DNA from: Phoronis australis
Lineage: Eukaryota > Animalia > Phoronida
Direction of reading: 5' to 3'
Length of the DNA: 64,000 nt
Assembly: GCA_002633005.1 (NCBI GenBank)
Contig: NMRA01000451.1
Span: 1-64,000, forward strand
The translations under genes and the position numbers were made by a program. A model generated the notes under the pieces. The model was given only the letters and a program-made list of their open reading frames with translations. It was not told where the DNA came from and did not search any database. How positions within the stretch are numbered: the stretch's first letter is position 1; each line of letters begins with the position of its first letter. This document shows, piece after piece, positions 8,771 to 58,351 of the stretch.

Positions 8771-10214
8771 GTAAGTCGGCTTTGGCGGAAGGCAAAGACA
8801 AGTGGAGACAAGATTCTCAAGGTGATTGCTCAATTTTGGACCTAGAAAAAGTAAGGAGGTTAACAACACGGACAGCCCCTTAATATCATTTTGCAGAGAA
8901 GGTGCAGCCGGGAAGAGGAAAGATGCAGGTGGATTGACTACAGCGAGTGATTGGAAGATGGTTGTGGATGTAGGGCCATTGGCAGTGTTCCCGAGCTATA
9001 TAGTGATGACGACACTCCGGCCTGACTTGGTATTAGGGTCAGATAGTACAAAGACGGTAATCATAGTAGAACTTACAGTACCATTGGAATCCCGAATGGT
9101 AGAGTCCAACGAGAGGAAAAGGCCTACATGTAAGTATGCAGAACTTTTCCACGATTTTAAAGTAGCTGCTTGGAAGTGTTTTTGTATGTCAGTTGAAGTA
9201 GGATGTAGAGGTTTTATCGGGAGCAGCATGTGGAGGTTGATGGAGTTCCTAGGTATCAGCACAGTGTCAACGAAGGATTTGTGTCAGAATATGGTCTGAC
9301 AGTATTTTTAGTTGTAATGTTTGTTATTAGGTTTGATTGGCATGGCCCCTGAGTTAAGTACAGTGATGATGTAATTTGTTTACTACAGTATTGTGTGGAA
9401 CTTTCTAGAAGACTCTAGCATGACACTGATTGATGCAGTCTGAAATATTCTAGAGACTAGTACATGTTTGTAGAATGGTCGGGTACATTCAGGAAAGTTC
9501 TAGAATGTGCTTGAATTGATGAAAAGTTCCAGAACATTTGGTTATAAATACACAAGCACGGGTTTGTGTTAGTCAGATCAAGTCATTTCAAGAGAAGATC
9601 AAGTAATTTCAAGAGAAGATCAAGTCAGTTCATCAGAAGTTCACGAAAGTTAATCAGGAGAACTAGTTGAGTAGCAGTGAAGCGAACCAGCAGTTACAGC
9701 GATAGTCTATAGAGAGCCAGCTATAGTGACAGCAGTTTATTGAATCGACGAGTGTAAGTGTTGATGAACGTGTCTCAGAAGTTCATCACAAGTCAAGGCA
9801 TCGCACCACTGGCTGGAGCACAGAACATACATTACGTCGGACGTTTTGTTTGAGTAGGCTTGTGAACATACGGTCGGGATTAATAAAGGATTAACTCGAA
9901 CCAGTCTTCAGTCAATCGTCGCACCGAAAGCTATTAGCACCGGTCTGTAACAACCTGCGCCCACCCACACACGAGGAAAACGTGACAATTTGGTGCACAC
10001 AGTGTCGGGATCTGCTGAAGAGGTGTTGTCGTGGCTATGGTTACAGCGAGACAACAGGTGGCACTCCAAGTGATAGCCGAAGCCTGATCAACTTCGGGGA
10101 CCTGGCATCCGAGATGATTCTAGATTACGGGTCGAAATTATCGATGAGGATGCATTCTAGCTGATTACAGCACTTGGAGAAGCAGCACACAAAAATAGTG
10201 ATTGAGGTAATTCA
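8771..10214 (+). mobile_element. 3'-terminal copy (RLE + 3' UTR) of the Hero/NeSL-type retroelement, split by a solo LTR
   Basis: Matches 13164-13878; encodes RPDLVLGSDSTKTVIIVELTVP..ERK..KY..VEVGCRGF, a restriction-like endonuclease. Confidence 0.85.
9282..9987 (+). mobile_element. Solo LTR (706 bp)
   Basis: TGTCA...TGACA termini; 5-bp TSD ATTTG (9277-9281 / 9988-9992); TATAAATA ~9543; AATAAA ~9882; absent from the paralogous sequence at ~13655. Confidence 0.9.
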
Positions 10215-13200
10215 ACGTCTGGACAAGCTCCAGTGACATCAAGGAAAAGGCTGGAAGAAAAACTGGAAAGGCATGTGACGACTTGGAGAGACGGTGGTGA
10301 CCTGGAGAGACGTGTGACATTCTGGAGAGACAGTGAATGGTTTGGGTTAGCAACCCATCCAGTTGACATTCATATTGCTACGTACAAGTAACCAAAGAAG
10401 AGAATACCCCCGGAGTTTCTCCGAGAGGGGGATGAAGTACTCAAGTATCAGAATACTACGGAATCAACTCGGCACGTTACAGTAATTACGACATTGATCA
10501 ACGATGACCGAGTATGCAGGGGATGTATGAGGACGTTTAAGAATTTCATGGGGTAAGAATTCATCAGTGAAAGACGAAGTATCTCCAGCGGCAACACTTA
10601 GGTGGTACTACTAGTACACGTCGGGCAGGGACGGCGTTGAAGTATTTACATCTGGTAGGGAGGAGCAGGACTCGGGGATCGTGCTACTTTTTATGTCAAA
10701 GTTGCTAACAGAAACTGGTGAGGACCGGGATCCAGGCAGCATTCCGAGGCAAAGAATTGAAGCACTATCTGAGGTGGCAACGAAGGAGCGGATTACTTGG
10801 CCAAGAGGCAATGACTCGAAGTCCTGGAGTTCTCTATTTGAAGATCTTGATGGCGTTCTAGAGGCAAATTTTAAGGAGACTGCCCACAAGAAACTGATCA
10901 CCATGACTGAGTTGGTCTACACAGTTTGCATAGATCGATTTGGCGTGGCGTCAAAGAGGAAGAGACCAACCGCGCAAGGGCCTAGCAGAAGGCATAGAGA
11001 TCAAGGAGATCCGGGTAGAGCTGAGATACCTTAAAAGGCGATGGCAGAGAGCCGAGGGTCATTAAAGGAGAGGCTTGACCTATTTAAGACTGGAGTTGAG
11101 GTGTAAACTTTTATCTTTGCAAGGTATAGAGCAGCTTAGAAAGAGGAAGCCCGAGAAGATCCGGAAGAGAAAGAAATTTCTTTCCAATCCATAAAGTTCA
11201 CGAAGGAGCTTTTTGGGAGAGAGACAAGTGGGTAGCTCAGATGCTCTAAGGAGGAGCTGGAGAGACATGTGAAGGAGGTTCACAATGACACTCGGTGCGA
11301 GGAACCTTGAGAGATTTTGACTGGATGGATGAAGAGAAATTTCCAAGTGTATCTTTAGAGGTTGGCGATTTTAAGTTCTGTGATGTCAGGAAGGTGGTAC
11401 TGAACGCCAAGTCGGGATCAGCTTCAGGCCCATCCAGGCTACTGTACTTAGTTGATAAGAATTGTCCAAGGTTATTACACCGCTTCGCCTTTGGAAGCTG
11501 TTGAGAGTGATTTGGCGCTCTAAAGAGTTGCCTTGGAGGCGGGGAAAGGCGGAAGGGGTGTACATTCCGAAAGGCAAAGGCTCTGTGAAGGTTGGTCACT
11601 TCCGTCCTATCTGGTTTATTGGATGTGGAGAGGAAAGTCTTTTTCGCTGTGCTGGCAGACAGACTAACGACATTTTGTTGGAGAACAGTTACATCAACCC
11701 CTCGGTGCTGAAGGGAGGCGTTCCCGGCTACTCTGGTTCTTTAGAACACAACTGCGTGATCACGGATTTAATCAAAGATGCAAAGAAATTAAAGAAAGAC
11801 CTGTCTGTGGTATGGCTTGACATGGCCAATGCCTATGGGTCGTTGCCACACAAGATTATAGAGAACGCGACGTGTATGTATCATTTGCCGGAAGGTCTGC
11901 GTTCTGTCATCAGCAAATATTTCACAGGAACAATAATGATATTCTCAGTTAATGGTTTCACAACAGGGTGGCAAACTTTGCAGAAGGGATCATGACAGGG
12001 TGCACAATTTCTATAATTCTGTTTGTGATGGCCATGAATGTTAGGATAAAGCGAGTATCCAAAGAGTGGAGAGGACCTTTATTGCAGAACAAGCGTCCAC
12101 AAAGTTGTCGTGCATATGTGGATTATCTCACTGTTACAACTCAGTCGTCATTTGCGGCAGGCAGGATTCTAAAAGCCTTGGGTGATCTAGCCAGGCTCGC
12201 ATGGCGTTCAAAGTAGCAAAATCAAGGAGTTTAGGGCTGTTTCGAGGGAAGATTAACCTACATTTTGCTTTGAATGTGGTTGAAAATGTGATACCTTCGG
12301 TGTCTGACAAGTCAGTGAAGTATCTGGGGAAAGAGTATGATGGCACATTGAAGGATTGACACCATGTAAAAGCGGCGCTGAAAAGTTTACAGGAAAATTA
12401 TCAGGATAGTGAATTACCTGGTCGCCTTAAGGTGTGATGTTACCAGTTTGGCCTATTCCCAAATGCCATGTGGCCTTTGGCAGTGTACGATCTACCTACA
12501 TGTATTACACCAGCAGAGAGGATGGAGCGCTTGGTCAGCCGCTGGTTGCGCAAGTGGTTAGGCATCCCCCAAGATTCACCAAGTTGGGCCTGTACATGAG
12601 GTCTTCAGCAGTAAACCTAACTACACGATCTATTGTGGAAGAGTTTAAAGTCGTTAAGTGTAGGCTTTTCCTGACTCTGTGGGACTCGCAGATAAAAATA
12701 TCAGTGGTGTTAAGATTGACGTTTTTGCAGGAAGAAAGTGGAGTTCAGAGGAGGAAGTGGAGAGCAGAGAGCAGGATTCACCATAAATATTTGGTGGGGG
12801 CAGTTTCTAGAGGACGTGAAGGCCTTGGCTTGAAAACGTTTAAGAGGTGGAAGACAACTAGAGGGAACGATCGTTGTTCTATGGTGTTAGACGACGTACG
12901 TCACCAGGAAGAGGAGAAGCACTTTTCTCATGCTGTGGGTTTGAGAAAGCAGGGCGCATGGACAGCATGGGAAGGAGTTCACAGTAAGCTCATTACAGCG
13001 AACGACCTGACTTCGTGTGACCAGTGTAGATTAAGGTTTTTCTGCGTTCTGTGTATGACCTACTTCCTATTCCGACAAACCTGAAGTTATGGGGAAGGAG
13101 TGAAGACGATTCTTGCGGCAGTTGTGGGGAGCGCTGCACTTTACAGCACGTTTTGTCATTTTGTAAGTCGGCTTTGGCGGAAGGCAAGTACAAGTGGAGA

Positions 13201-13878
13201 CATGGTAAGATTCTCAAGATGATTTCTCATAATTTGGACCTAGAAAGAAGTAAGGCGTTTAGCAACACCGACAGCCCGCTAATATCATTTTGCAGAGAAG
13301 GTGCAGTTGGGAAGAGGAAAGATGCAGATGGACTACATCGAGTGATTGGAAGATGGTTGTGAATGTAGGTCCAGTGGCAATATTCCCGAGCCATATTGTG
13401 ATGACTACTTGGTATTATGGTCAGATGGTACAAATACGGTCATCATAGTAGAACTTACAGAACCATGGAAATCCCGAATACTAGAGTCCAACGAGAGGAA
13501 ATGGTTTAAGTATGCAGCAATTTTCCATGATTGTTCAGTAGCTGGTTGGAAGTGTTTTTGTATGCCAGTTGAGGTAGGATGTAGAGGTTTCATCGAGAGC
13601 AGCATGTGGAGGTTGATGAATTTTCTAGGTATCAGTACAGTGTCGAGAAAGAATTTGATGCAGACAGTGATGAGATCTGCTGAAGTGGCGTGGCCGTGGC
13701 TATAATTACAGCGAGACAACAGGTGGCACTCCAAATGATGTCCGAAGCCTCATTAACATGGGGGACCCGGCATCCGAGATGATTCTAAATTAGGGGTCAA
13801 AATTATCGATGAGGTTGCATTCTAGCTGATGACAACACTTGGAGACGCAGCAAACAACAACAGTGATTCACGTAATTT
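10215..13878 (+). mobile_element. Near-full-length decayed non-LTR retrotransposon, R2-group Hero/NeSL-like (Zn finger - RT - CCHC - RLE)
   Basis: N-terminal CRGCMRTFKN..IHQ finger; RT motifs WLDMANAYGSLPH, GIMTGCTIS, AYVDY, VKYLGK; CGSCGERCTLQHVLSFC knuckle; RLE VIIVELTEPW..ERK..KY..VEVGCRGF; many frameshifts. Confidence 0.88.
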
Positions 13879-16170: not shown

Positions 16171-16319
16171 CTAGGAAGAAGATGCTGCGGAACCAGATTT
16201 TTTGGCGCAACGGGCGACCACGCACAAGACAATAAGCACACCAACTCCGGCAATCACATAAATGGCGTAAGTCTTCACGAAAGTGCTATTTAAAGGTTCA
16301 CCAATAGTGTCCGTCGAAT
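16171..16319 (-). CDS. Terminal exon of the microexon gene: juxtamembrane segment, TM helix, short cytoplasmic tail
   Basis: Acceptor tctcttccag; phase 1 reads DSTDTIGEPLNSTFVKTYAIYVIAGVGVLIVLCVVARCAKKSGSAASSS*, a hydrophobic stretch followed by a basic stop-transfer (RCAKK). Confidence 0.85.
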
Positions 16320-17252: not shown

Positions 17253-17273
17253 CTTCTTCGCCTGAATCGCCAT
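17253..17273 (-). CDS. 21-nt microexon, DGDSGEE
   Basis: ttttcctgcgtttgcag|ATGGCGATTCAGGCGAAGAAG|gtgagt; phase 1-1. Confidence 0.8.
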
Positions 17274-17363: not shown

Positions 17364-17623
17364 CTAGAAACATGTTGAAAAGGAGATTGGTACATGTACA
17401 CTGTATGAGTGATTATTTAGGTAAGTTTCTATAACCGTGACAGTTTGCATTTTCGATTTTGGGGTCAAACTAAGAAGATAAAATTTTCACTGAAAAAGGT
17501 TGATGTGAACATTGTTTCATTCCAGGTCCCCTGTTTTTTCGAGTTATCTCAATCTGTTTCATTTCGTCACGAGGCCATATCACGTGTCTTAAATGTCAGT
17601 CAATGTGCACGAAAGTTGCTTAC

Positions 17624-17644
17624 CTCCGGCTTGCTGTCCTGAAC
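17624..17644 (-). CDS. 21-nt repeat microexon, GSGQQAG
   Basis: ttgttttgtag|GTTCAGGACAGCAAGCCGGAG|gtaagc. Confidence 0.85.
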
Positions 17645-18631
17645 CTACAAAACAACGGAGTGTGAATTCAGAGTAACCTTATTGACATTCATGTACATCA
17701 TTTTTGCTCACGGAGGCAGCGATTTAGTTTAATTCCGCAGAAGATGGCTCCGTTAATTTTGACCAGAGCAACATCTGGGCCCAGGTGCATAAACGTTATA
17801 CGTCGTATAGCAACAGTGACATCGCATTATCACGCGTCACGTTATTGTTGTACAATGCACCTGACATCAAGCAACAGTTAAATTATCCAGCGGATAACTT
17901 TGAAGTTTTATGCAACCCATCCCTGCAGAACACACCTAACCTCAAGTCATCAAATAGTTTAAATGTTAAATGTCAACAGTGCCACTTTTTCAAGATCAAG
18001 CAAAAAAGAAACAGACAAAAAGAACCAGAAGCAAAAACGCAAGCAAACCAATGTACCCTCAAATGGTTGTATGTTGATTTGCAGTGAATTTAGGTTCCAA
18101 GACTAGGTGTTTCACACTCAATGACTAAGATCATTTGTCGATTGAATTTTGCATGCTTCAAAAGAAGCCATTTGGCTTATACGTTATGCCAGGCACGCAG
18201 AACCATGGACGTTTGAATGTGGAATTTTGGACAGGTATGAGGAACACTCCCTAAACCCATGTTAAATCAAACCAGTATTCATTGTTGCCGGGAAAAGGAG
18301 TCAAAATAAAGGTAGGCTTGAACTACATGTAACAGACTTAAAGCAGGTCTATGTGGGCAATTGTCGACATCCCAAACGTGTCTGCTCATTCCCAGCCGAT
18401 TCCAACTCTAATATATGAAGTACACTCTGATTTGCAATATCTCCAATTCGCAAAGCGCATTCTGCCAAATTAGCAAACTCAGACAATGATTGTGCTGCAT
18501 TCCAAGTCATAAGTGCCTTTGAGCTGTTTCAAGCCTTTCTTCATATCATGAAGAGTCAGAGTTGCATTGATCAAATGCATCTCCAACTGCTCTTGATTGT
18601 TTGTCCAATTAAAATAGTTTCACTTATTTAC

Positions 18632-18652
18632 CTCCGGCTACCGGCCCTGAAC
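18632..18652 (-). CDS. 21-nt repeat microexon, GSGPVAG
   Basis: cttttgtag|GTTCAGGGCCGGTAGCCGGAG|gtaaat. Confidence 0.85.
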
Positions 18653-19368
18653 CTACAAAAGTAGACTGTGTGAATTTAAGAGCGACATAAGTGACACATA
18701 CATTAAAAACGCTTGAAAGTCGGTTTAAGACCATTTCCATATAAGGTAGCGTGCAATTTTTTAGTTAGAGTTTCCGAATCAACAGAGTGAAGCAAATGTC
18801 CAAGAGCCAACATAACTGTGGCAACAAAATAAGTAAGTCATTTAAATACCTTCTCGGTTGACGTCATCAGAGGAAAGTGGCAATAAAAAACTTGAGACCA
18901 GATTATGTGACAAATGCGGAATAAATGAAATTTGAGAAGAAACATAATGTAATTAAGCCATCACTTTCGGAAACGCAATTGGAGGCGCTGCCAAATTAGT
19001 AGTTCCAGGTAAAGATTGTTTCATTCCAAGTCCAATGTCTTTTCTAGTTTCACCAAGAACAAGACAGACTCGAAAATTCTGAGAAAAAGCTCCGTGTGGC
19101 AAGCCTACAGGTTTATACCATTGGCGACAGAGGTACAACTTGTGTTTATTCTGTTGTATACTTGGATGTTGCAGTGCCGGTCGTACAGTACCTCCCACCT
19201 GCAAAGTGCATTCTGCTAAATTGGCAAACTCAGACAATGATTGCTACTTTCTAAGTAAGGAGCCCCTTTCAGTTGTTTCAAGCCACTCTTTATCACGACG
19301 AGGAAGCGTTGCATTTCTCGAATATATCTGCAACTGCATGTTCAGATTCAAATTGTCAGTGTACTTAC

Positions 19369-19389
19369 CCCCGACTCCCGGCCCTGAAC
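19369..19389 (-). CDS. 21-nt repeat microexon, GSGPGVG
   Basis: tttttgtag|GTTCAGGGCCGGGAGTCGGGG|gtaagt. Confidence 0.85.
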
Positions 19390-19688
19390 CTACAAAAATA
19401 GAGTAAACGAATTAACAATACCTACACGGTTGATGTCGTCAGAGGAAAGTGACAATAAAAAACCTGCGACCACATCATGTGATACATGCATAATACACGA
19501 CATCTGAGAACAAACATCATGTAATTAAGTCGTCACTTTCGGAAACGCAATAGGAGGCGCTACCAAATTAGTAGTCTGGGGTAAAGATCGTTTCATTCCC
19601 AGTATCTTCGAGTTGTCTTAATGTATTCCATTTCACCACGAGTCCATGTTGTGTGTCTTAAATTTCAGTCCAAGTCCACGATGCTTAC

Positions 19689-19709
19689 CTCCGGCTCCCG
19701 GTCTTGAAC
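19689..19709 (-). CDS. 21-nt repeat microexon, GSRPGAG
   Basis: ttttttatag|GTTCAAGACCGGGAGCCGGAG|gtaagc. Confidence 0.85.
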
Positions 19710-20659
19710 CTATAAAAAATGGAGTGTGAATTCAGGGTACCCTTATTGTCATAGACCAATTGTCTGAAGGAGGCGGAGATTTAAGGTTAGTTCCGCAGAA
19801 ATTAGTTCCCTCAGTTTTGTACAAAGCAACATCTGCTGTGGGGCAAAACGTGGGAATGGAACGCAATTACAGATTAAGTAGCAAAGTCATCAAATAATTC
19901 AAATATTAACTGACAAAGAGAACCTGAAGCAAAGAAGCAAACAAACCAATACACCCTCAGATGTTTTTAAGTTGATTGGTAGTGAATTTAGACATTGATA
20001 CTTGATGTTTGACACTCGATGACTCAGCTCATTTGCCAATTGAACTCTGCACGCTGCAAAACTTCAGTACTACAAAAGAAGGTATTTTGCCTATATCCGA
20101 AACGTTCAATCGGTACACTAGCCGATGTGCCTATATTTGGAGGTTTTTGGTTTTTAATTAGTGGAATCTTGGATAGGTAAACGGAGCACTCCCTAAAGCC
20201 ATGTCACATCAAACTTTTACTCATTATGGCATCGAAAACGAGTAATAAACTAGGATTGGACTAAATGTTACATAACCGAAGCAGTTCTCCGAGGACTATG
20301 GTCGGTATCCGAAACGTATCTGTTCGTTTTTACACGACTTCAAATCGTTTCACCAAGGACAAGACAATTTAGAGAATGAGCTTCGTGTGACAGGCCTATA
20401 CCAGGTTTATACCTTGACCTCTTGTATTCTGTACACTCCGATTTGCAGTGCCGGTCGTGCATTATCTCTTACGTGCAAAGCACATTAAAACAAACTTGGA
20501 CAATGAATGATATATTCCAGTTCAGAAGTCCTTTTGAGCTGTTTGAAGCCACTCGTTTCATATTATGACGAGTCAGTGTTGACAGTCTCGATTGTCTCTC
20601 CAACTTCACGTTGTTTTGCTCTTGATTTTTGTTCAATTAACAATGTATCAGTTGCTTAC

Positions 20660-20680
20660 CTCCGGCTCTCGGCCCTGAAC
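20660..20680 (-). CDS. 21-nt repeat microexon, GSGPRAG
   Basis: ttcttttgcag|GTTCAGGGCCGAGAGCCGGAG|gtaagc. Confidence 0.85.
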
Positions 20681-21592
20681 CTGCAAAAGAAGGGAATATG
20701 AAGTCAGGACGATATAAGTGTCAACTCAAACGGTTTACAAGGCGGTTTAAGAATAATTCCATAGGACTTGCAACCTTTTCGTACGTACAAACTACTTCCC
20801 GGCAACAAACACTATAAAACCATTTACACATATTCGGAAAGTGACAATAAAAAACGCAAATACATTACAGTATGTGTTACACATAAAATAAACGACATTC
20901 GATACCAATCATAGTTAAATCGCAACTTTTAGGAACCTTTCAACAACCTACAAAACAAATAGAGTGACATTCAGAATGCACTTGCTTTCAAATGTCCAAG
21001 CGCTAACGTAAGCATGGCAACAAACATAATTAAATCACTTGCATAATCGGTTGACGTTATCAAAAGAAGATGGCAATAAAAGTTTGCGTATGCTATACGT
21101 GATACATGCAGATTAAACGGCATCTGACAGCAAACGCAATTAAATCCCATGTGGCAGAGGCTAGAATAAGCTTGCAATTTTGAGATGGTTAGCAGGCAGT
21201 CGAATTTCCCCATGGCTCATAACCATATAAGCACCATAAAGTTTGGGCACTAGAATTTAGCCGAGCGCAGCCTCCCAACTTCATTGTTTTAAATCCAAAC
21301 GAAATCTGCATGCAGCTCTCTCAGCCCTCCGAAGCCTTATCTTTCATTGAGCCTGTTAAATTGTCCTTGTGAGCGGTGAATTGGCGACAGGATTGCCAAA
21401 ACAAACTCAAAAGCCTGAATTCAAAGAGGTTAAATGGTGAACATGGCGGATTTCAGTTGTGCTTTAACTTGTACGCCTGTCGAAGACTAAAGTTTCGAGT
21501 TTCATCAACCCCTATCTGAAAGCCAGGAATTGTACCCCAAATTTGAATGATTGGGGTTTCTAAAATTAACCATAACGCTTAATCGTCGTGAG

Positions 21593-21634
21593 AGACCGTC
21601 CCGAGTTGGTATGTGGTGCAACTCGGGACGGTCT
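21593..21634. repeat. Perfect 16-bp-stem hairpin, probably a mini-MITE core
   Basis: AGACCGTCCCGAGTTG - 10 nt - CAACTCGGGACGGTCT. Confidence 0.8.
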
Positions 21635-23280
21635 GGGGTCTACAGAAAACCATAGTTCAACTGTGAGTCTACACCACTGTGATAAACGAGAGTAGTTTTA
21701 CTTGCTGCGTCAGCTGATGGTATGCTTATCTCTTTTATGACACACAATGTGCGACTGGGCAAAGCGTTTTCAAAATAATGTGGATAAATCAGTGGAGTGT
21801 GAAACCCCTGAGGTCCCTGTCAAGTCCCCACGGCAATTTTACGTTATGTTACCACTTTGTTGTGTTATTGTTTCTTATGAATTTAATTGAAAGAACAGGC
21901 ATATCCTGTATTTGATCTTGACACGATTACATGTACGTGCTACTCTATTTGGAACAATCGGCTTTTGCCGGAAATTCCCGATGTCTGACCGCACATTTAG
22001 TCGCGGGAAATAGCGTATCGGCAACTGCCGGATTTCAAATTTAGGCCTCTGTTAGTATCCCGCCACCGTGGTTCTTCGGTTATAAACAACGTTGTGTATC
22101 TGTCCTATCCCTTACAGTAAATGCCAAAAAAACATGCAGTTTTCAGCAACTGCATTTGTTGGTTTTCTGAAAATGCCACGGGTCAGCCAGTTTGCGGAAC
22201 GCGTTGTTAGTAAGATGCCATGTCGCTCCAGACATTTATTTTTCGCATACACATTTTTAGTGTTACACCAATACAGCACAGTAGTTGAAATCAGGGTTAA
22301 TTCAACAGTATTTAGCAATGCAAAGAGTTGCTGAGATGTCGGAAATATACTCTTACTAAGGGCGCGCACATTTACTGCACGCCACCAAAACAGACTCACA
22401 CGCACTCTTACCACGAAAAAATAAGGCAGCGTTAATAAGTCATCAGAGGACGTTGCCCAGTCACTTGCATTGGACATTGTCTCTGAAAGATTACCACTTT
22501 TGGTCGGAGTCGTGGTTCCTTGGTAAAAGTGTGCATTAGAATACGAAGATGTTCTTTAACCCCGCTTTAACGTTCAATGCAAATGCATTTACACGTTTGG
22601 ATATGGCAACAGTTCACAAACTCCTGTAAACCATTACCCCTGAAACAAAAAATACTTCTTCCATCTTCGTGGAACCTCCAGACTTTTAGCTTGAATCTTC
22701 AACTAACATATCTTACGATACTGTGATAGTTCAGGCGGTTTGGGTATGTATTACAGTAATGGCTAAATTGCCACACGTAAAAGATGTTGTTACAATTTTT
22801 GCCAGCATTCATGATCCTAATTGGCAAAGTGTTGACATTTTGGGCCTGCACACCACACCACGGTCCGGCACTTGTCGAACATAGAAGAGCTGCAGGATTA
22901 CGTCAACTTACACTGACCACAGTGCAACCTACAATCCAGAGCCATATCATAGCTTGGGATCGATTTTTGCCGGTGATATGGGGAAGAAACGTTGTATACT
23001 CGAGAGCCTGTCCATCAGAAGAGCGAGTGGTACGGTCAAGAGCCGTGACGTGAGTCAGTGCTAACTCTTTCTAAAAATTATGTCATCATGATATGTGTCC
23101 CAAGTCGGTGACTTCATAAAATGACTGCAAAACCACCTAATCATCATTTTGCGAAAAAACACAAACACTGAGTGTCGAAAATGCCTTACATTAAACATTA
23201 TAAGGAGTGCCACTACGTTTATGTTACGGGGAAACCAAAAAGACTGACAGCCTGATCTAATTCCAACGTTCAAGCCTGAG

Positions 23281-26005
23281 GTGAGGCGACGTTCACTTCA
23301 AGACAATAGAAACTTATCGTGTAAGTTAGCATCTTATACATTCACTATTCGCGTTGGACCTGTCCACACTCCCAAACAGGCTGGGATTTTTGCACGCGTT
23401 GCTACAGAGATGAAAAACTACAACATTCGTTTGCTGACACTAACCGAGCTGAGGTTGAACACAGTTGGCCAAATTGAAAAACAGAAAGTAGAGACCTTTC
23501 TTTACTCATGTAAAGAAAATGAGGTTAACCCTTGGAGCATGGCTTTGGACTTTTTCTCAATCAAAACTCCACCAACAGACTATTTGAGTGGAACCCAGTC
23601 TCCGACACAATGGTCACATCAAGATTCGCATCCCGTTACCGGCGGGTAATAGTTACACAATATACGCACCCACCAACACTGGGTGATAACAGGTGATGGG
23701 TTGTCATGACCCGGGTATCGTGAGTGAAAATGGCGACTTCTTCACTTACTTGCGTCTACAACAACCTGGTCAGATATAAGTAGCAAAACTTTCCCTCACA
23801 AGAGAGGTCATAAATTAAACCTGTGCCCTGGTGGAAAGAAAAGAACCATATCAATCACTTTCCCATCCGTAGACATTAGATAAGAGCAATGGAAGATGTC
23901 CGTAGTGTGCAAGGTGCCGATATCGACTCAGACCACTATCTAGTTGTTGCTGCATTGCATGGAAATGTGTCCTCTCATAAAATTAGTGGAAATGGCAGTA
24001 TCTATTTTGTCATAAACAAATTACGAAATGACGACACCAAAACGGAATTTGCACTTCGCAACAGGTTCGCTCAATTACAGCCGATTTCACTACAAAAGAC
24101 TTGTGGACCAACATCAAACACACGTGCATTAGTACATGAAGAAATTCTGGATAAAAGCTCGATAAAGAACAAGAAACCACAGATTACTGATTTCACTTGG
24201 AAAATATAAAGAAACGAAAAGTCCTGCTGTCAACTGAGTCAAGACCTGTCTCTAGCCAACGCACAGAACTCTAAATATAGATGTACAAGAACTGAAACAT
24301 GGTAATATGCGCTTAGAGCTGACTGGAAGCCGCTGCCAAGGGAGACATAATGACATTGTACGCCACCATCAACCAATCGAGTGGCCAATGCTCTATACCC
24401 TTCAAACAACTTCAGGACAAGGTTGGTCTGCTAATCACCAATATTGAAGAGCAACTGGTATTCCAGTGAACTCATTTCAACACCATACTAAAATGGAAAT
24501 GTCCCTTAAATCTTCCAGCATTGCCTGAACCGAGGGAAATCCTCGACATGTGTCATCAAGAACAGGAATATCGGGGAAGCATCCGGCATCGACAATATCT
24601 CAAATGAAGAGGGAAGCGAGTTCTCAGTCAATGCCCTACACACATTGCTCAACGAGATCTAGGAAAAATATGAGACCCCACAAGACTGGACCAAAGGGCT
24701 CTTGGTTGAACTGCCGAACGCAGGCGACCTATTCCAACCTAAAAACTGTCGTAGAAACACTTTTCTGACCACACCAAGCAAAATGCGCATCCAGGTAATG
24801 CTTAACGGAATGAAGGAACCTCTCGACCTTAAACCGATTAGATACCAACAAAAACAGATTTTCCAACAGAACGATCCTTTACTGACCAGATTGATACCCT
24901 GAGGAGGACTGTTGGACAGTCCATCCAATTGAGTTCATCACTCCACCTCAACTTTCTTAATGTCAAGAAACCTTTCGACAGTTTTCGACAGAGAAATGAC
25001 CGGAAAATCCTATATTATGGTGTCCCTAACCAGTTTCTGGATGGAATTATAAAACGCCACGATGAGTTCACATGTCCGGTTATTCACAATGTGGACTCAC
25101 TCAGCCATTCCAGGTTGCAACAGGTGTACGACATGGATGTTTACTGTCACCTTTGTCTTCTTGATTGCTTTTAATTGGGTGACACGCACCGCATTCTCCG
25201 CCCCACCAATTGGTATACAATGGGCATTCACCAGCCGTCTTGGCGATTTAGGGTATACAAATAACCTCTTCTCTTCCTTTTAGCTCAGCGACAGCACGAA
25301 ATTTAACTTAAGACTTGCGTGCTCTCGTTTGGAGCCAAACATCAACGTCGAGAAAACTAAGAAGATGAGCATTTACGAATGGACAAAATGACAGCATCTG
25401 AGTGGATGGGAAAGAGCTAGAAGATGCCCAGTCTTCCACCAATTTGTGTAGACAGCATTATGGGTGCAACGCAGGAAGACGTCAAGGCTCGCATGAAGCA
25501 GAAACGTCAACGACATGCCATGCCGAAACGTCAGCGACATGCCATGCCGAAACCTGTCTGGAAGTCCTCTCCCTGACACCTCAAGATCTTGAACTCAAAT
25601 TTCAAGCCCGTCCTGATTCACGGCTTAACGGCATGATGACTCGATAATCACCAATGTTCAAGTCTTAACAAACAGATGACTGAGTCACTAGTGTGACAAA
25701 ATAGTAAATTAAACCATGTAGAATAAAGCCAGATATGAAGTCACAAAAATCCAGATAAAGAGAAGGAGTGGAGGTGGATTGGTCACACGATACAAAAACC
25801 CAATACAAATTACCACCTAGCTTGCCTTAACTGGGACCCCCAGTGGAAACGTGTAATATTGGAGACGAGCTGTGAATCTGAACTCCTTTCAATTGACAGG
25901 TTTTGAAACGAGATCCGAACAAAGGCTACCAACTAGACTAGATGGAAAGCAATCATGGAGGCCGTATGCACCTGAAGGTGTTTAGAGGCATCAGTCAGGT
26001 AAGTC
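23281..26005 (+). mobile_element. Decayed RTE-clade LINE (APE + RT), antisense within an intron
   Basis: APE fragments EMKNYNIRLLTLTELR and DVRSVQGADIDSDHYLVVA; RT fragments LNFLNVKKPFDS and GIQWAFTSRLGDLGY; RTE-like ending WRWIGHT...WKAIMEAVC with a TCAGTCAGGTAAGTCA tail. Confidence 0.8.
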
Positions 26006-26128
26006 ACTATGTATCGGGAACAGAAAAGAAGGAAATATAAACAGTAACTGATGCATTGTAAGATGTGTAGTTGATCTCGGTGTTCTTGAATACCCTTTGC
26101 CCAATTCACACATGTCTAATTGTTTTAC

Positions 26129-26149
26129 CTCCCGTTCCCGGTCTTGCAC
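26129..26149 (-). CDS. 21-nt repeat microexon, GARPGTG
   Basis: ccgttttgtag|GTGCAAGACCGGGAACGGGAG|gtaaaa. Confidence 0.82.
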
Positions 26150-29100
26150 CTACAAAACGGGTAGTACGAATTTAAGGAAACACAGGTTACATCAGATATG
26201 CGTTCAAGTGGATGACTTTACTCAAGAAAAAGAAAATAACAGCAAGTGATAACTAGCAAATGGAAAAAGCACAACCTTCACGCACTCTAAACGAACAAGT
26301 TATTTTCCAAATTATACATGTGTGAGTAAATATTTACAGAAGGCCTGCCAAAAGGTAAAAATTAGAGCTTTTTCAAAACTGATAATCACCATCGTGTAAG
26401 TTTGATATAACGATACGATAAATGAAAAAAATTCCAAAAATAGACTTGCTGTGGTCCAACAAAGACTGAAATATAAAGTACCGTCATAAAGGTAGTACCA
26501 AAATACATGCTTGAATTATTAGTCTTTACTAAATCTGTGCTTTGTATAGTTATATTACTTAAAAAAGCTTGAGATTTGGACCACAGCGCAAGTACAAGTG
26601 AACAATCAGAATGAAACAAAATGATCTAAAAGTTCAAGACACGCAACTACTATCTCTTACTATCTTCAGCTTTGTGTAAACTTTTCAATGCACATTGTAA
26701 CATTTATAAGTTTTAACTTTTAGGAAGGAGTATTAGCCTAAATGACAACGCTGTTCTGAACAAACATCACTTAATCTGTGCTCTACATCAGTTTATGAAA
26801 TCGTTTATATGAAAAGTAATTTTAGTTGCCTGTACTGTATGCGATCTATTGAATTTCTCTGGGGAGAGCTCATTGTACTAGGTAACTTAATTGCCTTCAC
26901 CAAAGATCAGTTTGTAACCAATTCTCTGATTTATATCTTTGTTCCATAACTTCCCAAGACAAAAACCTGTTTTGAGTGTCTGACATATCGTTTACATTAA
27001 CTATGACGGCCTTGTAGGTCCCATTGAAACACGCAAATTTGCCATTAATCAAAATATTTCTATTTAATCAAGCAAAGTCTGCTCAAAATGCGCAATTAAT
27101 CAATGTTGACTATTTCAGTGATAGTTGCGTTAGAGAGAATTAGCAGCGGCGTGTCCCTGCCAAATGAAAGTCTACCTATTAACAGAACCTAACTACATCC
27201 GGTCATTCGGCAACCTACCAGACTCTACATTTGAAAACAAATGCCTCTGAACTCTGCCGTCTTTCACCTTATTCTCTCCAAAATTAGTAACTTTCTCAAA
27301 ATACCATGACAAAGGCTCAGAGACTATTAGATCAGTGGTCTTTTGTTTTCTGTATATCTGGACAGTTTAAAAATCATCAACTAAAACATTAATTTTGTTT
27401 ACAGTAACGCCTGTTGAAAGTGGTTGCAAGTTGCAAGCAAAATGTTTCAGATCTTAGAGAAAAAATGAACAACCCCACGACTTATCTGTAAGTATGAAGT
27501 CACTAAAATGATTTGAGGTACATGTAGCATGCTAATTTTTATTAATATGAGTGTGTATTGACTTAATTACATTTGGTGTTCAAAACATTAAATTAACCTT
27601 GTTGGTGGTATTAAAAATGTTTAGTGTCAGCTATGATCAAATTTAAATTTAAATTTATTCAGATTTTGACAAAATAATGTTTCAGTAATACATGATTTGC
27701 ATGCTGTCATTTTAAAATCATTCCTATCTAAAATGATTTTAAATTTTCCATCGACACAAAATAACTCAAATAGCAGTATCAAATATTCATTTCAATTTGC
27801 TTTAAAATTCTAAGAATTTGCAATTTATCATTGCAGATTGATCTGAGGTGACATAAGCAAGTTGCTCATGCACAAAAGGTCTTGGATAAGCCTGTGGCCA
27901 CATTACGGGATTGTTATATCAAATAGCCAATCAGGAGCTTCTGGGGGTTTCTTCTGTACCTGATTATGTTGCTAAGAACTCCCTGCAACAAACGTGGTAC
28001 CAGCCAAGAGTGTGAGGTCTCAATCAGCTAGCACAGAGGAGGCTACCATGATTGTAAACAGTTAGTAGTCCATCAGTCCTAGCCTCGCTTTGGATTTTCC
28101 CTTAATATTCATGAGGCAATATTAAGAAAGGTCTGTTGTCAACACGCTGCAGAAAACAATTGGAATTGGAGCAAGTCGGCTGGAAAAATAAAAATTGCTT
28201 TTAAGCAGTTTTTATTTTTTATTAAAATAGCCGTCGACCACAAATCTTTAGACGAATGATCCACTTTTCGAAAAACGGGATATCGGTGTGGACATTCCGT
28301 TGCTAGCACACTTTTTGCTTTCTTTCAGGAACGTCCGGGAAATACGTGAGCCCCTCCCCCTATTCTGGTCACCGATAATTAAAGTGCATTATGATATAAA
28401 GGAAAATTTGCTCTCACTCCCGGGAGGACGATGCACTGATTAACAATTGCAGAAAATCTACTTTTATGATCCCCATTTCTGTTCCGTGACTAACGAGAAA
28501 AAACGAGAAACGAATTTGGCCTTTGTGCTCATATTGGTGCTATCACAATATCCCTTATGTTGATAGATTTATATTTGTTGTTGGTTGAAAACACCAATGT
28601 CTTTAGAAATCACTTCGGGGTATACTGATGTTGTACGACTCAGCGAAATCGAAAGTGACGCATAGCATCGCCAGTGACTTGCCCTAGTAACGAACACAGA
28701 ATCGTTTCCCGTACTAGTCCGATCGATATAACGTGAGCAAAAAATACCAATTCGTTTCTCGTTTTTAGCCATTTAAAAAGACAAAGTGTACCTGTACGGA
28801 AATGTAGAAGCGTAGACAAATGTTCAAATTTGCTAAACTTTGGATAATCGTACATGTATCTCAGGAATGACTGATGGAATCCTCAACTAACTTACATATA
28901 CAGTGTACTATGTTTATGCACTATTCTCAAAATATCTTATAGGAATTTGTTCCTTAAATGTTGCACTTGTGCATGACGGATTCCATGACCTTGTTCGAAA
29001 AAAAAATAATTTTGATAAATCAATAACCTGAAATGATAATTTAAAAAAGTATCAACATTTTGAGATTTTGTATCAAGTGAAATTAGGCAATGCTATTACC

Positions 29101-33449: not shown

Positions 33450-33464
33450 CTGGTCGTACCGGAG
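33450..33464 (-). CDS. 15-nt microexon, APVRP
   Basis: tctacttcttacag|CTCCGGTACGACCAG|gtaagc. Confidence 0.8.
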
Positions 33465-33876: not shown

Positions 33877-33912
33877 CTTTCGTGGTTTTGGTCGTGGTCG
33901 TGGTTGTTGGAA
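33877..33912 (-). CDS. 36-nt Thr-rich microexon, VPTTTTTTKTTK
   Basis: cttgttttttccgtag|TTCCAACAACCACGACCACGACCAAAACCACGAAAG|gtaagc. Confidence 0.85.
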
Positions 33913-39538: not shown

Positions 39539-39553
39539 CTCGGATAGTCGGAC
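39539..39553 (-). CDS. 15-nt microexon, GPTIR
   Basis: ctctgtttcttgtag|GTCCGACTATCCGAG|gtaagc; flanks homologous to the 33450 exon. Confidence 0.8.
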
Positions 39554-41479: not shown

Positions 41480-41491
41480 CTGAGTATCTTG
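41480..41491 (-). CDS. 12-nt microexon, (T/A)RYS
   Basis: ccttttcttctttttcag|CAAGATACTCAG|gtaagt; strong sites; phase 1-1. Confidence 0.8.
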
Positions 41492-42583
41492 CTGAAAAAG
41501 AAGAAAAGGTAAATTATTGTGGATTACTACTACATATTGTGATAAATTTGATTTCGTGAACATCATCAAATTGCTCATATTTTACATACTGGTCAGTAAA
41601 ACTTGCCGCATAGGTGCATGCATACTTACTGAAAACCTAAAATTAAGTTAACAGCTTTGCTGAAACTTTTGTAATCTTGGCGTCTTATCTACAAAATTAC
41701 AGGGTTTGTGGTTTCATTGCTCAAGATAATATGTACTTTGATAGGTTTGATTTGTGTTCAGTTTATGCGCAGTATGTTTCTGCAGTGCGATCGTAATAAC
41801 GTAAGCGGCACAACATTTGCTATTCAATACAAGTGTGACAGTAAATATGACACTTTCAAAGCACAGACTTCAATCCTGTTGAGGTTGGTTAACTGAATAA
41901 TGGTTCTCTAGCTCTATTCAGACCTTAAGTAAAGGACGACAGGGTAGCAAATTAACATCTTTTAAATTCTTAATCAGCTACCGTAACACGTAACAGAACC
42001 GAATTCTGGCTTATGTTTCATGAAAATTGATTCATTACTTAGTCAGAAATTTTGTATGCAACCTCCGTATCCGCAGGGTTTTTCTAATGTGAACAAGTAA
42101 ATCATGCTATAACTTTGTTGGCGATAGCGTTAACTTCCGAAACTGATGAGAAATATCAAATTATCTTCGACGCCTTGTTAATACCAGATTAAGTTGCTGG
42201 GAACAAGTCGAAAAGTGGCATTTCACGAAACAAACATCTAGGCCAGGACTTTATGTTGTACTCGAAATCGAACTCGAAATTATTTTCAAGTTGTTTGGTT
42301 CTACTTCTTTGCAAAAAAGTAGCAATTGTGCTCCCCTCCAGTATACAACAAATTGTGCTAAATAGTGTCAAGTCCAACTTGTAGCGGTCATGCAGGGCTC
42401 CTCAAGTGCAAACTAATCTTGTACTGTCATCCACATAAGCCATAGTGTATTCGAGTACACACTAACGGTCACACTTATCTCGAATTCTCAGAAATGTAGA
42501 ACAGAAAAAATCAAAAAATAAGTCCGAGTACGAGATTGAGTACAAATATTAGACTCCGGGCTCTGAATTAATATCCTCCGTAC

Positions 42584-43000
42584 TTCTAAGAGGGACACCC
42601 TTGCAAGTATGTCCCTTGTCTTTTTTAAATTTGCACGTTACCTGTTCAAGTAGCATTTGGTGCTGTCAATTGGGTCAATGATACCATACTTGTGCATATA
42701 AAGCGCATTGATGGTAGTTGTAAAATTTTTATGAGAGTCGAAATCGAAAGTAATGGTTTCCGTGGCTTCCAAAAATATTATCCGGATTATCCGCCGCAGC
42801 AAACAAGTCGCTGCCAAGTATTCGGCCAGTCTCTAACTTTTTCGCTTCGATTGGCTGAGGTTAGGCGTAATGGATAAAGGCCATTTAAAAAGGGTCCGTA
42901 TTAATTTTTCTATAGTGCACCAGTTCCGGGGTGAAACTGAAAACAAATAACTTGAGCATGGAATTCGTTGTCGTCGGTTTTTGGATTACCTTCTCTACGT
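42584..43000 (-). pseudogene. Decayed duplicate of the 3' half of the VWA-like exon/ORF at 62975-63390
   Basis: Collinear with 62975-63390, and the flanking intron also aligns (42455-42583 vs 62845-62974); at least two 1-nt deletions and a GAA>TAA stop; donor AGAA|GTACGG retained. Confidence 0.88.
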
Positions 43001-44899
43001 CGCATGATTGGAGTGCAAATCTGAGTTTACTCATTTAATAGAATTGCTTTATTTCCGAGTTGAGTATAGAATATAGATATTAGGCTAAGGGCTCTAACAT
43101 AAGCCTGAATTTTCGTAAATTATAACACCCTTTATGTCGCTTTCAGCTTGGAATGATTCTGACTCAGCTGAAAATTCTGCCTACTGGTAAATCAAAGTTG
43201 TTTTAAGCGTAAAAGTGTGACAAATTTACTTAAAATACATTCTTAAATATTTTGATTGCTCCTGGTAAAATGAGTCACGTTGTAGTATTTAAACCCTTCT
43301 TCGTCATTTGTACTTTCAGAATGAGTGGTTTGGAAGCCCCCTATAAACACGTTTTGGGTGGATTCCCAGATTGTTGATAGAAGGAGACCGCCAGAAAAAA
43401 CCTTGTTGTATTGTTCCATTTCACCTCCTTAATATCTCATGTAGTGACATTTCGCATTCGTTCAACTCTCATCTCACAAGTTTAACCGGACAAAGGTGTC
43501 CCTGTTTCGTTTAAAGTTTTGAAATGCCCCTTGTTAGGACATGTTCAGATTGTATTCAGGGATTCATACAGGATTTCGAAAGTAGGATGTCCAAAACGGG
43601 GTTCCCAATATTTTAGGATGTCCGTGATTCCGACAACAGAATACCCCCACCACCGTGCACCAGCACCTCCCCCACAGTGATTTTTTTACAAAAAATACCT
43701 AGATCAAGACGTTTACATCTGAGTTTTCAAAGTAACCCTCTCTAGCGACTTTTTTACTAAAAAAATGCGTGGACTTAGACTTTTGCGTCTAAATTTATGA
43801 ATACATCCAAGCAGCTTACCAGACAAATGTTAAAGATATTTTAAACGATGAATGCATTTCGCAGATGACGTGTGGTTTATATTTTGGCAGTAGATGTCAG
43901 TATACTGTTCCATATCAAAACAGGAACAATTTCATTGAAATGCATGAAACAGTGCTTAGTTTTAATTACTTATATTAGGTTAGTGTAAACCCTACTTCAA
44001 TCATGTCAGTGAGTTTTTTTAATCTAACTTTTCAGATGTCCAGTTGAGCTAAGAACAGTTGTAAGGTAACTAATTCTTACAATGTTTACAAATGTAGTAT
44101 GACTGCAGTCTAACTCCAGGTTGAAGTTATGTGTATCATTTCGGTGTGGCGAACAACCAGTATAGAGGCATCAGTATGAATTTTAAACTGAATGTCTTCT
44201 TAAAAATGTAACTATTCTCATCTTGCAGGTAATCAGAGCTGTTGTTCGCTCATGTACTTATCTTCTTTGTCACCTGCATCCTCACAATCTGCATCAAAGG
44301 GTTGTGTCTGGTCTATGCTCTATTGCAATTTAAAGTAGACAATAATCCTGACTTCTGTCACCAAAATTAACTTTTCATTTAGACTACGTATCATTAGTAT
44401 GAAATTAATCTCGATTTATTCCTCGATAAAAATAGGTGTGAATTTCGGGCTTGAAAATGTCTAGAAATTTTTTACTGCTAGAGAGAGTTTCTTCATGTTG
44501 ACTTGTCACAGCATACCATTTCATTCATCTGAGATTGTCCCAACCATAATGAACTGCCACTTCCTTGCAAGACCAAAATTATCTCATCTGAATAGCGAAA
44601 AAGCCGAGATCAATTCTATACTGATAAGTGGTTAAAACCAAAAGTTAAGTTGCGTGGATAGAACAGGGTTTATAGCCATAGTAACTGTTCTGTGAAATAT
44701 GCCACTTTATCTCTCTCAGTGTTGGTTTCTTATTGCTTACTTATAGACGATGATAGTATGAACATTGTTTAAGCTTGATAAAACAGTTGTGATAGCTTCA
44801 TATTCATGCAACGGCTGCTGAGAAGCCCTTGGGACATAACCATATTGCCAGGGGCTAAATTTCCAGTCTTAGAACTCTAGGATCCATGTAAACCATAAA

Positions 44900-46068
44900 C
44901 AGCCGATTTCATAAAGGTGGTTTAAAGTTAAACCAGGTTTAAACTGGACTTAGACCAGGTTTAACGATAACCTGCATTTCATAAAGGTGGTTGAACTTTT
45001 AGACCAGTGGTCTTGTAAAACCTGGTTTAACTCCAGTTTAGACCTGGTCTAAGTCAGTTTTCATTTCACCAACGAGGTCTATATTCTTTAGACCTCTAGT
45101 AAGATCTTAAACCATGTTTATTTAACCTTAGACTTGGTCAGACCCAGGTTTAGCTGTTAAATATGCATGGTATAGGTGCAACTGAACGATGCCGCGGTGT
45201 GCAATTGCGACGCAGTTTTAGAGCGAAAATGGACTATTTTCATTATTCAGGTTTACTACGACACGAGATCAAACGTAGCAGGGGCGGATCCAGGATTTTT
45301 TTAAAGGAGATGGGGACGGTCAAGCACTTTTTGAAAGGGGGCACCAAGTCAACAATTTGAAAATTATAGATTTGATATCATTAAAATCAAAGGAAGAAGG
45401 GGGCTCCAGACCCCTTGACCCCCCTGGATCCGCCTATGCGTAGACCAGTACGTGCTGGAGTGTGTCCTGCGGATTCCTCAGAATACGACTGGTCGAGCAG
45501 GTCTCATCGTCGCAGGCCCTACGGATTTGACTTAAGACAGCATCCTCTGATACTTCTGACTGAGTTCCACCTCCACTGTTCTCCTATTCAATGTTGCCGG
45601 GAAGGGGTCTTGCCCCTCCTTTGGCCGCGAAAAATAAAAACTAAAATGACACGGAAATAAATTTGGGCATTTATCATGTTACATCTAATCATGAGCATGT
45701 TCTTTAATGTGTGTGTGTTGAGCACACAAATTACATTTTTCCTCATGAGAAAAGCTTTTACACCTTTGTCGTAAATGTCTGCACTGATTCTACTGGTGTA
45801 TGCCATTCTATACCCACGTGATCAAGGTTTCATTGAAGCACTTCAATAGTTTCTTTGTTGGGTTTACCAAGCTCGACACAGTTGGGTGCCTTTAATACTT
45901 TAAACCTGGTTCTACTGAACCAGCCCCCTGGTGTAGCAAAACCAGGCTTTCAGACTCTTAAACCATGTTAGTGAAATGCAAGTTAGGTCTAAAATTAGAC
46001 CAGGTTTAGGAAGACCATGTTTAAGTCTTCAACCTGGTTTTGTTAAAACACCTTTATGAAATCGGCTG
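44900..46068. mobile_element. Non-autonomous TIR element (PIF/Harbinger-like), copy 1
   Basis: TIR CAGCCGATTTCATAAAGGTG / CACCTTTATGAAATCGGCTG; flanks AAA/AAA; subterminal AAACCAGGTTT palindromic repeats. Confidence 0.85.
45279..45438. mobile_element. MITE nested in the Harbinger-like element
   Basis: CAGGGGCGGATCC...GGATCCGCCTATG with 5-bp TSD CGTAG. Confidence 0.85.
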
Positions 46069-58198: not shown

Positions 58199-58351
58199 CA
58201 GTGGCGGATCCAGGATGTTTTAAAGGGCGGGCGGTAAGGACTTTTTGAAAGGGGGGGCCAAGTCAACAACTTGAAAATTATAGATTTGGTATCACTAAAA
58301 TCAACGGAAAAGGGGGGCTCCGGACCCCTTGACCCCCTGGATCTGCTTATG
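58199..58351. mobile_element. Nested MITE, equivalent to 45279-45438
   Basis: CAGTGGCGGATCC...GGATCTGCTTATG at the same position in the host element. Confidence 0.85.

Follow-up and report, generated by a model that had tools for sequence, protein, structure and literature searches.

A 64-kb stretch of Phoronis australis DNA, referred to here as the window, carries six similar 21-nt segments bounded by splice signals, which raises the question of whether they are exons of a single gene and how they were multiplied. We consider it probable that five of the six are spliced serially into one minus-strand mRNA, and that several old tandem duplications of exon plus intron extended the stalk, predicted to be flexible, of a single-pass protein at the cell surface.

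Six copies and the gene that contains them

A pattern combining splice sites and exon sequence was matched by exactly six minus-strand and zero plus-strand copies in the window, and allowing four substitutions yielded no further ones there. As the initial annotation had stated, all six are 21 nt long, keep their splice signals, here AG and GT, and read G-[SA]-[GR]-x-x-x-G. Each is in phase 1 at both ends. Identity between copies ranges from 14 to 19 of 21 nucleotides across the 15 pairs. They are designated R0 (26129–26149), R1 (20660–20680), R2 (19689–19709), R3 (19369–19389), R4 (18632–18652), and R5 (17624–17644), all on the minus strand.

RNA evidence was taken from the raw-read runs X5, X6, and X7, whose samples differ from the DNA sample. 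Joints of 20–38 reads in each of two runs, almost all on one strand, connect R1 to R5 in series and in order. The joint at 33877–33912 and those from R1 to R2, R2 to R3, R3 to R4, and R5 to position 17273 carry, in this sequence, 38, 30, 26, 24, and 20 reads in X5 and 24, 32, 28, 28, and 24 in X6, with 2 further reads at the last; such near-level counts are expected for one main isoform. The three copy-to-copy joints (24–32 reads per run) indicate that the copies are not mutually exclusive. R4 is entered from R3, while its joint to R5 and the joint from 17253 to the last exon are inferred, neither being among the best 15 of the 113 joints listed. The copies are thus real exons, as had been proposed, but only five of the six are used in the reads seen: the exon at 33450–33464 is joined directly to 20680, bypassing R0, which occurs in none of the best 15 of 113 joints listed, has a bin depth of at most 0.4, and carries a donor (GTAAAA) weaker than those of the other copies.

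The 21-nt exons belong to a previously unrecorded 47.6-kb, 12-exon gene on the minus strand, expressed in two of the three RNA samples. It consists of a 766-nt first exon, ten microexons of 12–36 nt, and a transmembrane exon, which together make 1119 nt with a 372-codon open frame and no internal stops. Every intron is in phase 1, all ten microexons are symmetric (phase 1-1, multiples of three), and hydropathy peaks lie at both the N- and C-terminal ends of the translation. RNA reads support the spliced chain from exon 1 to the acidic exon. Exon 1 (62975–63772) comprises a short 5′ UTR, an ATG at 63740, a predicted signal peptide (hydropathy peak 1.74 at residue 6), an orphan head, and a phase-1 donor at 62975. 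Its RNA depth is 79–177 in X5, 78–127 in X6, and 0 in X7; RNA ends lie at 63761 and 63772, and loose-ended reads at the donor (72 and 48) tie it to the chain. Phase-1 microexons of 12 nt (41480–41491) and 15 nt (39539–39553) follow; loose-end letters from X5 match 30/30 over the former and the next two exons. The next of these is a threonine-rich, 36-nt phase-1 microexon (33877–33912), which has loose ends in addition to its RNA joint, and after it comes a 15-nt phase-1 microexon (33450–33464), which 37 and 23 reads show as the letters separating 20683 from 33877. Beyond R1–R5 lies an acidic 21-nt phase-1 exon with an Asp-Ser-Gly-Glu site (17253–17273), joined by RNA reads to R5. The last coding exon (16171–16319) has a phase-1 acceptor and an open frame, and encodes a predicted transmembrane helix (hydropathy up to 2.67), followed by a tail some 13 residues long before the stop at 16171; its same-strand RNA depth is 13.3 in X5, 7.9 in X6, and 0 in X7.

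Two candidates near the start of the gene were rejected. The segment 62188–62252, considered as a signal-peptide exon, lies within a high-copy repeat (61990–62730; DNA depth 11,000–43,000), and the open reading frame at 62958–63743, considered as a separate one-exon gene, is spliced out of by reads at 62975.

Since ten consecutive symmetric microexons let any skip stay in frame, the gene might instead work as a variant generator in the manner of Schistosoma MEGs, combinatorial skipping producing a pool of stalk variants. R0 is bypassed, exon 1 exists in a second version differing at 31 of 312 positions (about 10%), and a skip of R2–R4 is one reading of a joint row from 17646 to 20658 (20 and 20 reads). 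We consider this quite unlikely: the near-level joint counts in X5 and X6 fit one main isoform, and a clean skip joint is absent among the best 15 of 113 joints listed. In the 17646–20658 row the pieces are not contiguous, and we take it to reflect middle exons that were left unplaced. As in MEGs (PMC4350168, bioRxiv 10.1101/2023.06.21.545858), there are ten very short symmetric exons, a predicted signal peptide, long TE-rich introns, and fast-evolving sequence. Unlike in MEGs, microexons contribute only 204 of 1119 coding nucleotides, a large head exon and a membrane anchor are present, and a pool of skipped isoforms is not seen among the best 15 of 113 joints listed, the R0 bypass being the clear case. 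The gene is not a schistosome MEG, because microexons make up only 18% of its coding sequence.

It is extremely improbable that the copies are an assembly artefact or belong to a dispersed repeat that happens to carry pseudo splice sites. The window is repeat-rich, and a high-copy insertion lies near 17841–17883 in the intron 17645–18631, but the ordered splicing of the copies in RNA largely refutes such a reading. In addition, DNA depth across 17920–21239 is at single-copy level (3.0–7.6, versus 184–1137 in repeat bins), hits of the array outside 17400–21300 fall only at R0 within the window, and divergence among the copies far exceeds that between haplotypes. The depth agrees with the earlier view that the array is not a dispersed repeat, though older copies below 88% identity could escape this measure. 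Between R0 and the array, on the plus strand, lies a decayed LINE-like remnant (23200–26010), in whose read-through translation we recognise what we take to be reverse-transcriptase-like motifs; a Pfam search of it returned no match.

Duplication history and selection

The introns were copied along with the exons. The proposed alignment of 17645–18631 with 19710–20659 was recovered as two blocks, with 79% identity over 141 columns and 76% over 613, scoring 124 and 379 against a best shuffled score of 37. A 32-nt block reported to recur at about 18857, 19429, and 21050, with a partial copy near 20836, was likewise found there (32/32, 29/32, 27/32, and 16/17, respectively); at up to nine mismatches only the first three positions match in the window, and five shuffles gave none. 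Paralogous alignment covers 3044 of 3537 intron bases (86%) in 17505–21146, forming a mosaic in which 17505–18953 corresponds to 19581–21145 as a two-exon block. Identity to the sister intron around the five copies is 72–84%. In the flank matrix, R5 pairs with R2 (z = 27 and 26–31) and R4 with R1 (z = 16–21 and 13–16) on both flanks, which marks the duplication of a two-exon block, and the donor flank of R3 groups with R1 and R4. The suggestion that whole exon-plus-intron cassettes were duplicated therefore holds for the introns, but the unit was not always a single exon.

The intron homology of R0 is short, at about 160 columns around the exon. A probable relic of a seventh copy lies at 20925–20975 on the minus strand, with its acceptor flank kept and an in-frame stop in the exon equivalent; its alignment is weak past about 30 nt (z ≤ 3). 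Flank homology of the acidic exon at 17253–17273 to R0–R5 never rose above shuffles and is not detectable, and Tandem Repeats Finder did not detect the array. Elsewhere in the gene, a second cassette paralogy connects 39539–39553 with 33450–33464 (flanks 77% over 117 columns; score 104 versus 37 for shuffles), and intron 1 contains a decayed, incomplete duplicate of exon 1 together with the flank downstream of it (42458–42995, minus strand; 76% over 538 columns with five gaps of 1 nt, and stop codons in each of the three frames).

The initial annotation had further inferred that unequal crossing-over expands or contracts the array, with one exon per repeat and under selection, and that exon number may therefore vary between alleles. 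On this view the array would be in flux today, and R0 may be missing from some alleles rather than skipped. The mosaic introns, the probable relic, and the unused copy do record gain and loss, and an allele without R0 is conceivable given that RNA and DNA came from different samples. However, the copies are 16–28% diverged with about one gap per 36 columns, compared with roughly 3–7% (14/504 to 55/778 positions) for apparent second-haplotype contigs, short pieces from one DNA sample that do not span the array; this divergence and the many indels suggest that the events are old and that the array is no longer changing. One such contig (19404–19796) contains R2 with both flanks in unchanged order, the same chain appears with similar counts in two RNA samples, and no go-back joint in the array stands among the best 15 of 113 listed. 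Current flux is thus unlikely. The array looks old, its duplications seeming to predate present allelic variation, with unequal crossing-over the likely mechanism of cassette duplication.

Our preferred explanation, old serial duplication, would proceed as follows. Several tandem duplications would have copied exon-plus-intron cassettes; a copied two-exon block (R5–R4 with R2–R1) and an extra single cassette (R3) are both evident. Each copy being a multiple of three with phase 1 at both ends, a duplication would import working splice sites and keep the frame to the membrane anchor. Selection would purge frameshifts and splice losses, or the copy would drop out, as R0 and the relic may have done, while spacer residues would drift almost freely.

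Better conservation of exons than of neighbouring introns had also been expected. Exons match at 36 of 42 positions and adjacent introns at 690 of 913, a difference that is not significant (one-sided p = 0.09) and comes close to what had been set beforehand as contrary evidence, namely exons no better conserved than their flanks. Among R1–R5, pN is 0.18 and pS 0.16, from tiny counts and non-independent pairs. Together these values suggest that length, frame, and splice sites are preserved, not residues. The codons for Gly-1 and Gly-7 are retained in all copies, but both fall within the splice-site consensus. The neutral chance of five copies keeping AG, GT, and length is about 0.01, a rough figure that makes no correction for the choice of copies.

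The predicted head and stalk

Most likely, the protein presents an adhesive or recognition head at some distance from the membrane, on a threonine-rich and then glycine-rich spacer; the role of the head is a guess. The head is an orphan domain, possibly VWA-like on a single lead. This lead comes from Atlas, where the best hits fall in VWA clusters (0.86, 140 shared features), while a search of unnamed Atlas clusters gave only low-overlap bacterial rows. No homologue of the head was found among 488 candidates or among 1.84 billion representatives, nor of the last exon among 70 candidates at E up to 10. PDB sequences yielded only weak, unrelated rows, and Pfam and NCBIfam profiles, including VWA (PF00092), no match. 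Single-sequence fold models of the head are of low confidence (pLDDT 38 and 35), and fold searches gave nothing clear (best E 0.07 and best Z 5.0), a silence that carries no information on a Rossmann-like VWA fold. The VWA MIDAS consensus is D-x-S-x-S after strand 1; here the first predicted strand leads into an Asp without the two serines behind it. A literature search made without the organism name, and therefore weak, found no description of this gene or of one pairing a VWA domain with a microexon stalk.

Glycosaminoglycans attach to Ser-Gly near acidic residues, and each copy may accordingly be a selected module adding a Gly-Ser-Gly site beside the acidic exon, so that duplication would raise chain number on a syndecan-like proteoglycan stalk. 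Gly-Ser-Gly occurs in four of the five used copies, Asp-Ser-Gly-Glu lies in the acidic exon next to them, and R0, which is bypassed, contains no serine. However, R2 is used despite having lost Ser-Gly, pN is close to pS, acidic residues are absent from the copies themselves, the skipped copy is a single case, and the last exon gave no Pfam syndecan match; we regard such a module as doubtful. Type I topology and a short tail resemble syndecan (PMC2115498). At the level of motifs, the last six microexons, with five Ser-Gly sites between them, the hydrophobic helix, and the short tail would suit a syndecan-type proteoglycan, but the last exon matched no Pfam family, the conserved syndecan transmembrane and cytoplasmic domain included.

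Very unlikely, in our estimate, is a combination of these ideas: a recognition receptor, orphan and specific to the sample, whose VWA-like head varies strongly and whose stalk serves as a modular rack of one-exon glycosaminoglycan sites. Its reach or glycan load would then be adjusted between alleles through exon number and skipping, a MEG-like means of diversification in a membrane protein outside schistosomes.

Related systems and meaning

Tandem exon duplication is described in 7–17% of metazoan genes, generally with mutually exclusive splicing as in Dscam (PMC3342872). The duplications favoured here resemble those in producing adjacent homologous exons by internal duplication with the flanking intron copied, but the present exons are 21-nt microexons included together, with intron homology still visible. 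Tetrahymena LRR genes contain arrays of 90-bp, phase-2 exons for which unequal crossing-over was proposed (PMC6564038). They share with this locus multiplied exon/intron units of uniform length and single phase (here 21 nt, phase 1, six copies), whereas here one gene is concerned, with a low-complexity spacer instead of a folded repeat and the same chain in two RNA samples. A probable working analogue is the type I protein CADM1, in whose stalk a threonine-rich exon followed by short exon(s), exons 8 and 9, determines membrane distance (PMC5385562); those exons are alternative and not tandem duplicates, and the likeness lies in layout. Type I adhesins with a VWA head and a repeat stalk, such as Plasmodium TRAP (PMC9319867), offer a similar predicted plan of head, low-complexity stalk, and transmembrane helix with divergent head sequence, but no TSP domain is seen here, TRAP is a single exon, and VWA is only a lead for the present head.

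Exon duplication at this locus is a neat but ordinary mode of gene growth. A gene missed by sequence searches is uncovered, and its introns still show, with support from RNA, how exons were gained and lost: one block and one single cassette were duplicated, one copy fell silent, and another probably survives as a relic. In the spacer, frame and splice sites survive, not residues. The orphan head exists in two versions that differ by 10% and is expressed in two of three samples, as would fit a protein for recognition or adhesion. Should exon number turn out to be allelic, the evolution of stalk length or of the number of glycan sites could be tested directly at this locus.

Six exon copies and their introns

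Within the window, which has ~40% GC, GT-AG introns and reverse-transcriptase remnants, six 21-nt exon copies lie on the minus strand, in transcript order R0 (26129-26149), R1 (20660-20680), R2 (19689-19709), R3 (19369-19389), R4 (18632-18652) and R5 (17624-17644). The initial annotation had proposed six look-alike exons, and an acceptor–exon–donor pattern search of the 64 kb returned only these copies, with no more when four substitutions were tolerated; all six are 21 nt long and in phase 1-1. The proposed paralogy of their introns was likewise confirmed: intron-versus-intron alignments around the copies showed 72-84% identity, clear blocks scoring 54-379 against shuffled maxima of 24-41, and two extra rows scoring just 46 were set aside. 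A 32-nt block recurs at 18857 (32/32), 19429 (29/32) and 21050 (27/32), with a partial copy at 20836 (16/17), and was not matched in five shuffles. Across 17505-21146, 3044 of 3537 intron bases have a paralogue.

Dispersed repeats could produce a similar pattern; the intron blocks of the array are local. Contig depth in the DNA read run X1, with reads counted from 88% identity upward, was 3.0-7.6 across 17920-21239 versus 184-1137 in repeat bins, and within the window the blocks had matches beyond 17400-21300 solely at R0. One true dispersed repeat (~17841-17883) occupies the part of the R4-R5 intron that has no partner in the R1-R2 intron.

Other repeats occur in the window. A very high-copy repeat (61990-62730; DNA depth 11,000-43,000, both strands transcribed) starts 240 nt into intron 1, which also holds a 593-codon stop-to-stop frame with RVT_1 and RNase H matches (58238-60019), judged by sequence to be a fairly intact non-LTR element fragment. 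An insertion-interrupted, self-complementary repeat family (44891-46149, 56031-56187, 60053-60677 and 63914-64000) is nested in intron 1. At 8771-13877 lies a decayed reverse-transcriptase element with strong G skew, whose duplicated 3' part has copies 84-86% identical.

Duplication history and conservation

To reconstruct the duplications, 110-nt flanks of the copies were compared and z-scored. Both flanks group R5 with R2 (z 27 and 26-31); they likewise group R4 with R1 (z 16-21 and 13-16), so that 17505-18953 and 19581-21145 represent a duplicated two-exon block. R3 resembles R1 and R4 on the donor flank and no copy on the acceptor flank, and is therefore a further single cassette. The earlier interpretation thus holds in that cassettes were copied with their introns, but one duplicated unit is a two-exon block. 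R0, whose flanks are weakly linked to other copies (z at most 5), is older or eroded; it is displaced 5.4 kb from the array, partly by what we take, from its motifs, to be a LINE-like remnant, which had no Pfam matches. Near 20945, an acceptor flank is kept next to a 21-nt stretch interrupted by an in-frame stop, alignment being weak beyond ~30 nt, and this site is probably a seventh copy. Copying extends across the gene: the cassettes of the two 15-nt exons share 77% identity over 117 columns, and a decayed copy of part of exon 1 lies within intron 1. Among eight listed X1 contigs, those with differences include 14/504, 24/399 and 55/778, which look like a second haplotype; this 3-7% is far below the 16-28% between copies, indicating that the duplications are old. 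Recombination declines between such diverged copies.

Better conservation of exons than introns had been expected and did not reach significance: in two independent duplicate pairs, 36/42 exon versus 690/913 intron positions were identical (one-sided p=0.09), and four pairs taken singly gave p 0.08-0.49. Pooled over R1-R5, pN was 0.18 and pS 0.16, from small, non-independent counts. What is preserved is length, AG, GT and frame, as would be predicted for a spacer that precedes a membrane anchor; the neutral chance of this in five copies is ~0.011, a rough value uncorrected for how the copies were chosen.

Splicing and predicted protein

Splicing was assessed in ~18-19% of each of three RNA read runs (X5, X6 and X7), from 15 listed of 113 joints. 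Reads in X5, X6 and X7, respectively, supported R1-R2 (30, 32, 0), R2-R3 (26, 28, 0), R3-R4 (24, 28, 0) and R5 to the acidic exon 17253-17273 (20, 24, 2). The joint from 33877 to R1 (38, 24, 0), whose intervening letters are the 15-nt exon 33450-33464, bypasses R0. Nearly all joint reads were first-mate plus, which fits minus-strand RNA. R4-R5 was absent among the 15 listed joints. A row from 17646 to 20658 (20 + 20 reads) was returned as "between: not known", without shared letters; a true exon skip is possible, but the pieces do not abut, and the row is therefore read as three unplaced middle exons. In a second read mapping, 72 (X5) and 48 (X6) reads exit the long ORF at donor 62975. Beyond it, the consensus of the X5 reads matches 30/30 letters of 41480-41491, 39539-39553 and the start of 33877-33912, and that of X6, read by eye, differs at 2/30. 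R1-R5 are exons of a larger gene.

Exon 1, encoding the head, is highly expressed in both X5 and X6, X7 showing no expression of it, and last-exon (16171-16319) depth is 13.3, 7.9 and 0; from phase, strand and this matching expression pattern, we infer the joint between the acidic and last exons. Five X5 molecules begin at 16126, 45 nt beyond the stop codon, possibly marking a very short 3' UTR. Within intron 1, at 42458-42995, the 3' half of exon 1 recurs as a decayed copy (76% identity) whose donor-equivalent is altered.

The twelve joined exons span 1119 nt, with all introns in phase 1, no internal stops, and hydropathy peaks that are weak at the N-terminus and strong at the C-terminus. These exons would encode a type I membrane protein of 372 residues, comprising a signal peptide, a ~235-residue head, a 68-residue stretch encoded by ten microexons (first Thr-rich, next Gly-rich and finally acidic), a membrane helix and a short tail. 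At 63676 the window base, contradicted by every mapped read and contig (105/105, 111/111; DNA likewise), could be either erroneous or a rare allele, and at 63704 a 3-nt in-frame deletion affects the signal-peptide region in 21/87 and 30/99 reads. The exon-1 frame continues beyond its donor to a stop at 62958; a few same-strand reads enter this intron (62870-62974; depth 6 and 2), and read-through possibly yields a minor secreted form without the stalk.

Head, stalk and proposed mechanism

Sequence and profile searches, Pfam, NCBIfam and PDB sequences among them, found no homologue of the head. In the Atlas, it lay nearest VWA clusters (0.86; 140/256 features), the ten best named matches all belonging to one family, which offers a VWA-like domain as a lead only; structure models were low-confidence and fold searches gave no clear match. 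The Atlas leads, taken with the GT-AG introns and reverse-transcriptase remnants of the window, suggest an animal origin. Over 62974-63285, DNA read run X2 yielded two contigs of equal span and depth (7.8 and 8.9). One matches the window exactly; the other differs at 31/312 positions and represents either an allele or a paralogue. If they are alleles, this coding stretch diverges no less than the introns near it.

PMC3342872 places tandem exon duplication in 7-17% of metazoan genes, and PMC6564038 describes uniform single-phase exon/intron arrays in Tetrahymena, proposed to have grown by unequal crossing-over. Symmetric microexons are common to the Phoronis gene and Schistosoma micro-exon genes (MEGs), as described in PMC4350168 and bioRxiv 10.1101/2023.06.21.545858; the main MEG feature is not shared, as microexons supply just 18% of coding bases. 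A literature search without a species term returned no description of this gene.

A bolder reading of the sequence is that each copy would add a Gly-Ser-Gly glycosaminoglycan site. The Gly-Ser-Gly motif, a site type for glycosaminoglycan attachment, is present in 4/5 used copies and absent from R0; R2, however, is used despite lacking it. An allelically variable rack of glycan sites on an orphan recognition receptor is improbable. In the spacer reading, which is the most likely, symmetric phase-1 microexons can be duplicated along with their introns with the frame intact, so that copies would accumulate in a length-tolerant stalk, while those losing splice strength would fall silent. In CADM1, according to PMC5385562, a five-residue change in a comparable stalk switches shedding; the Phoronis stalk likely sets the distance from head to membrane.
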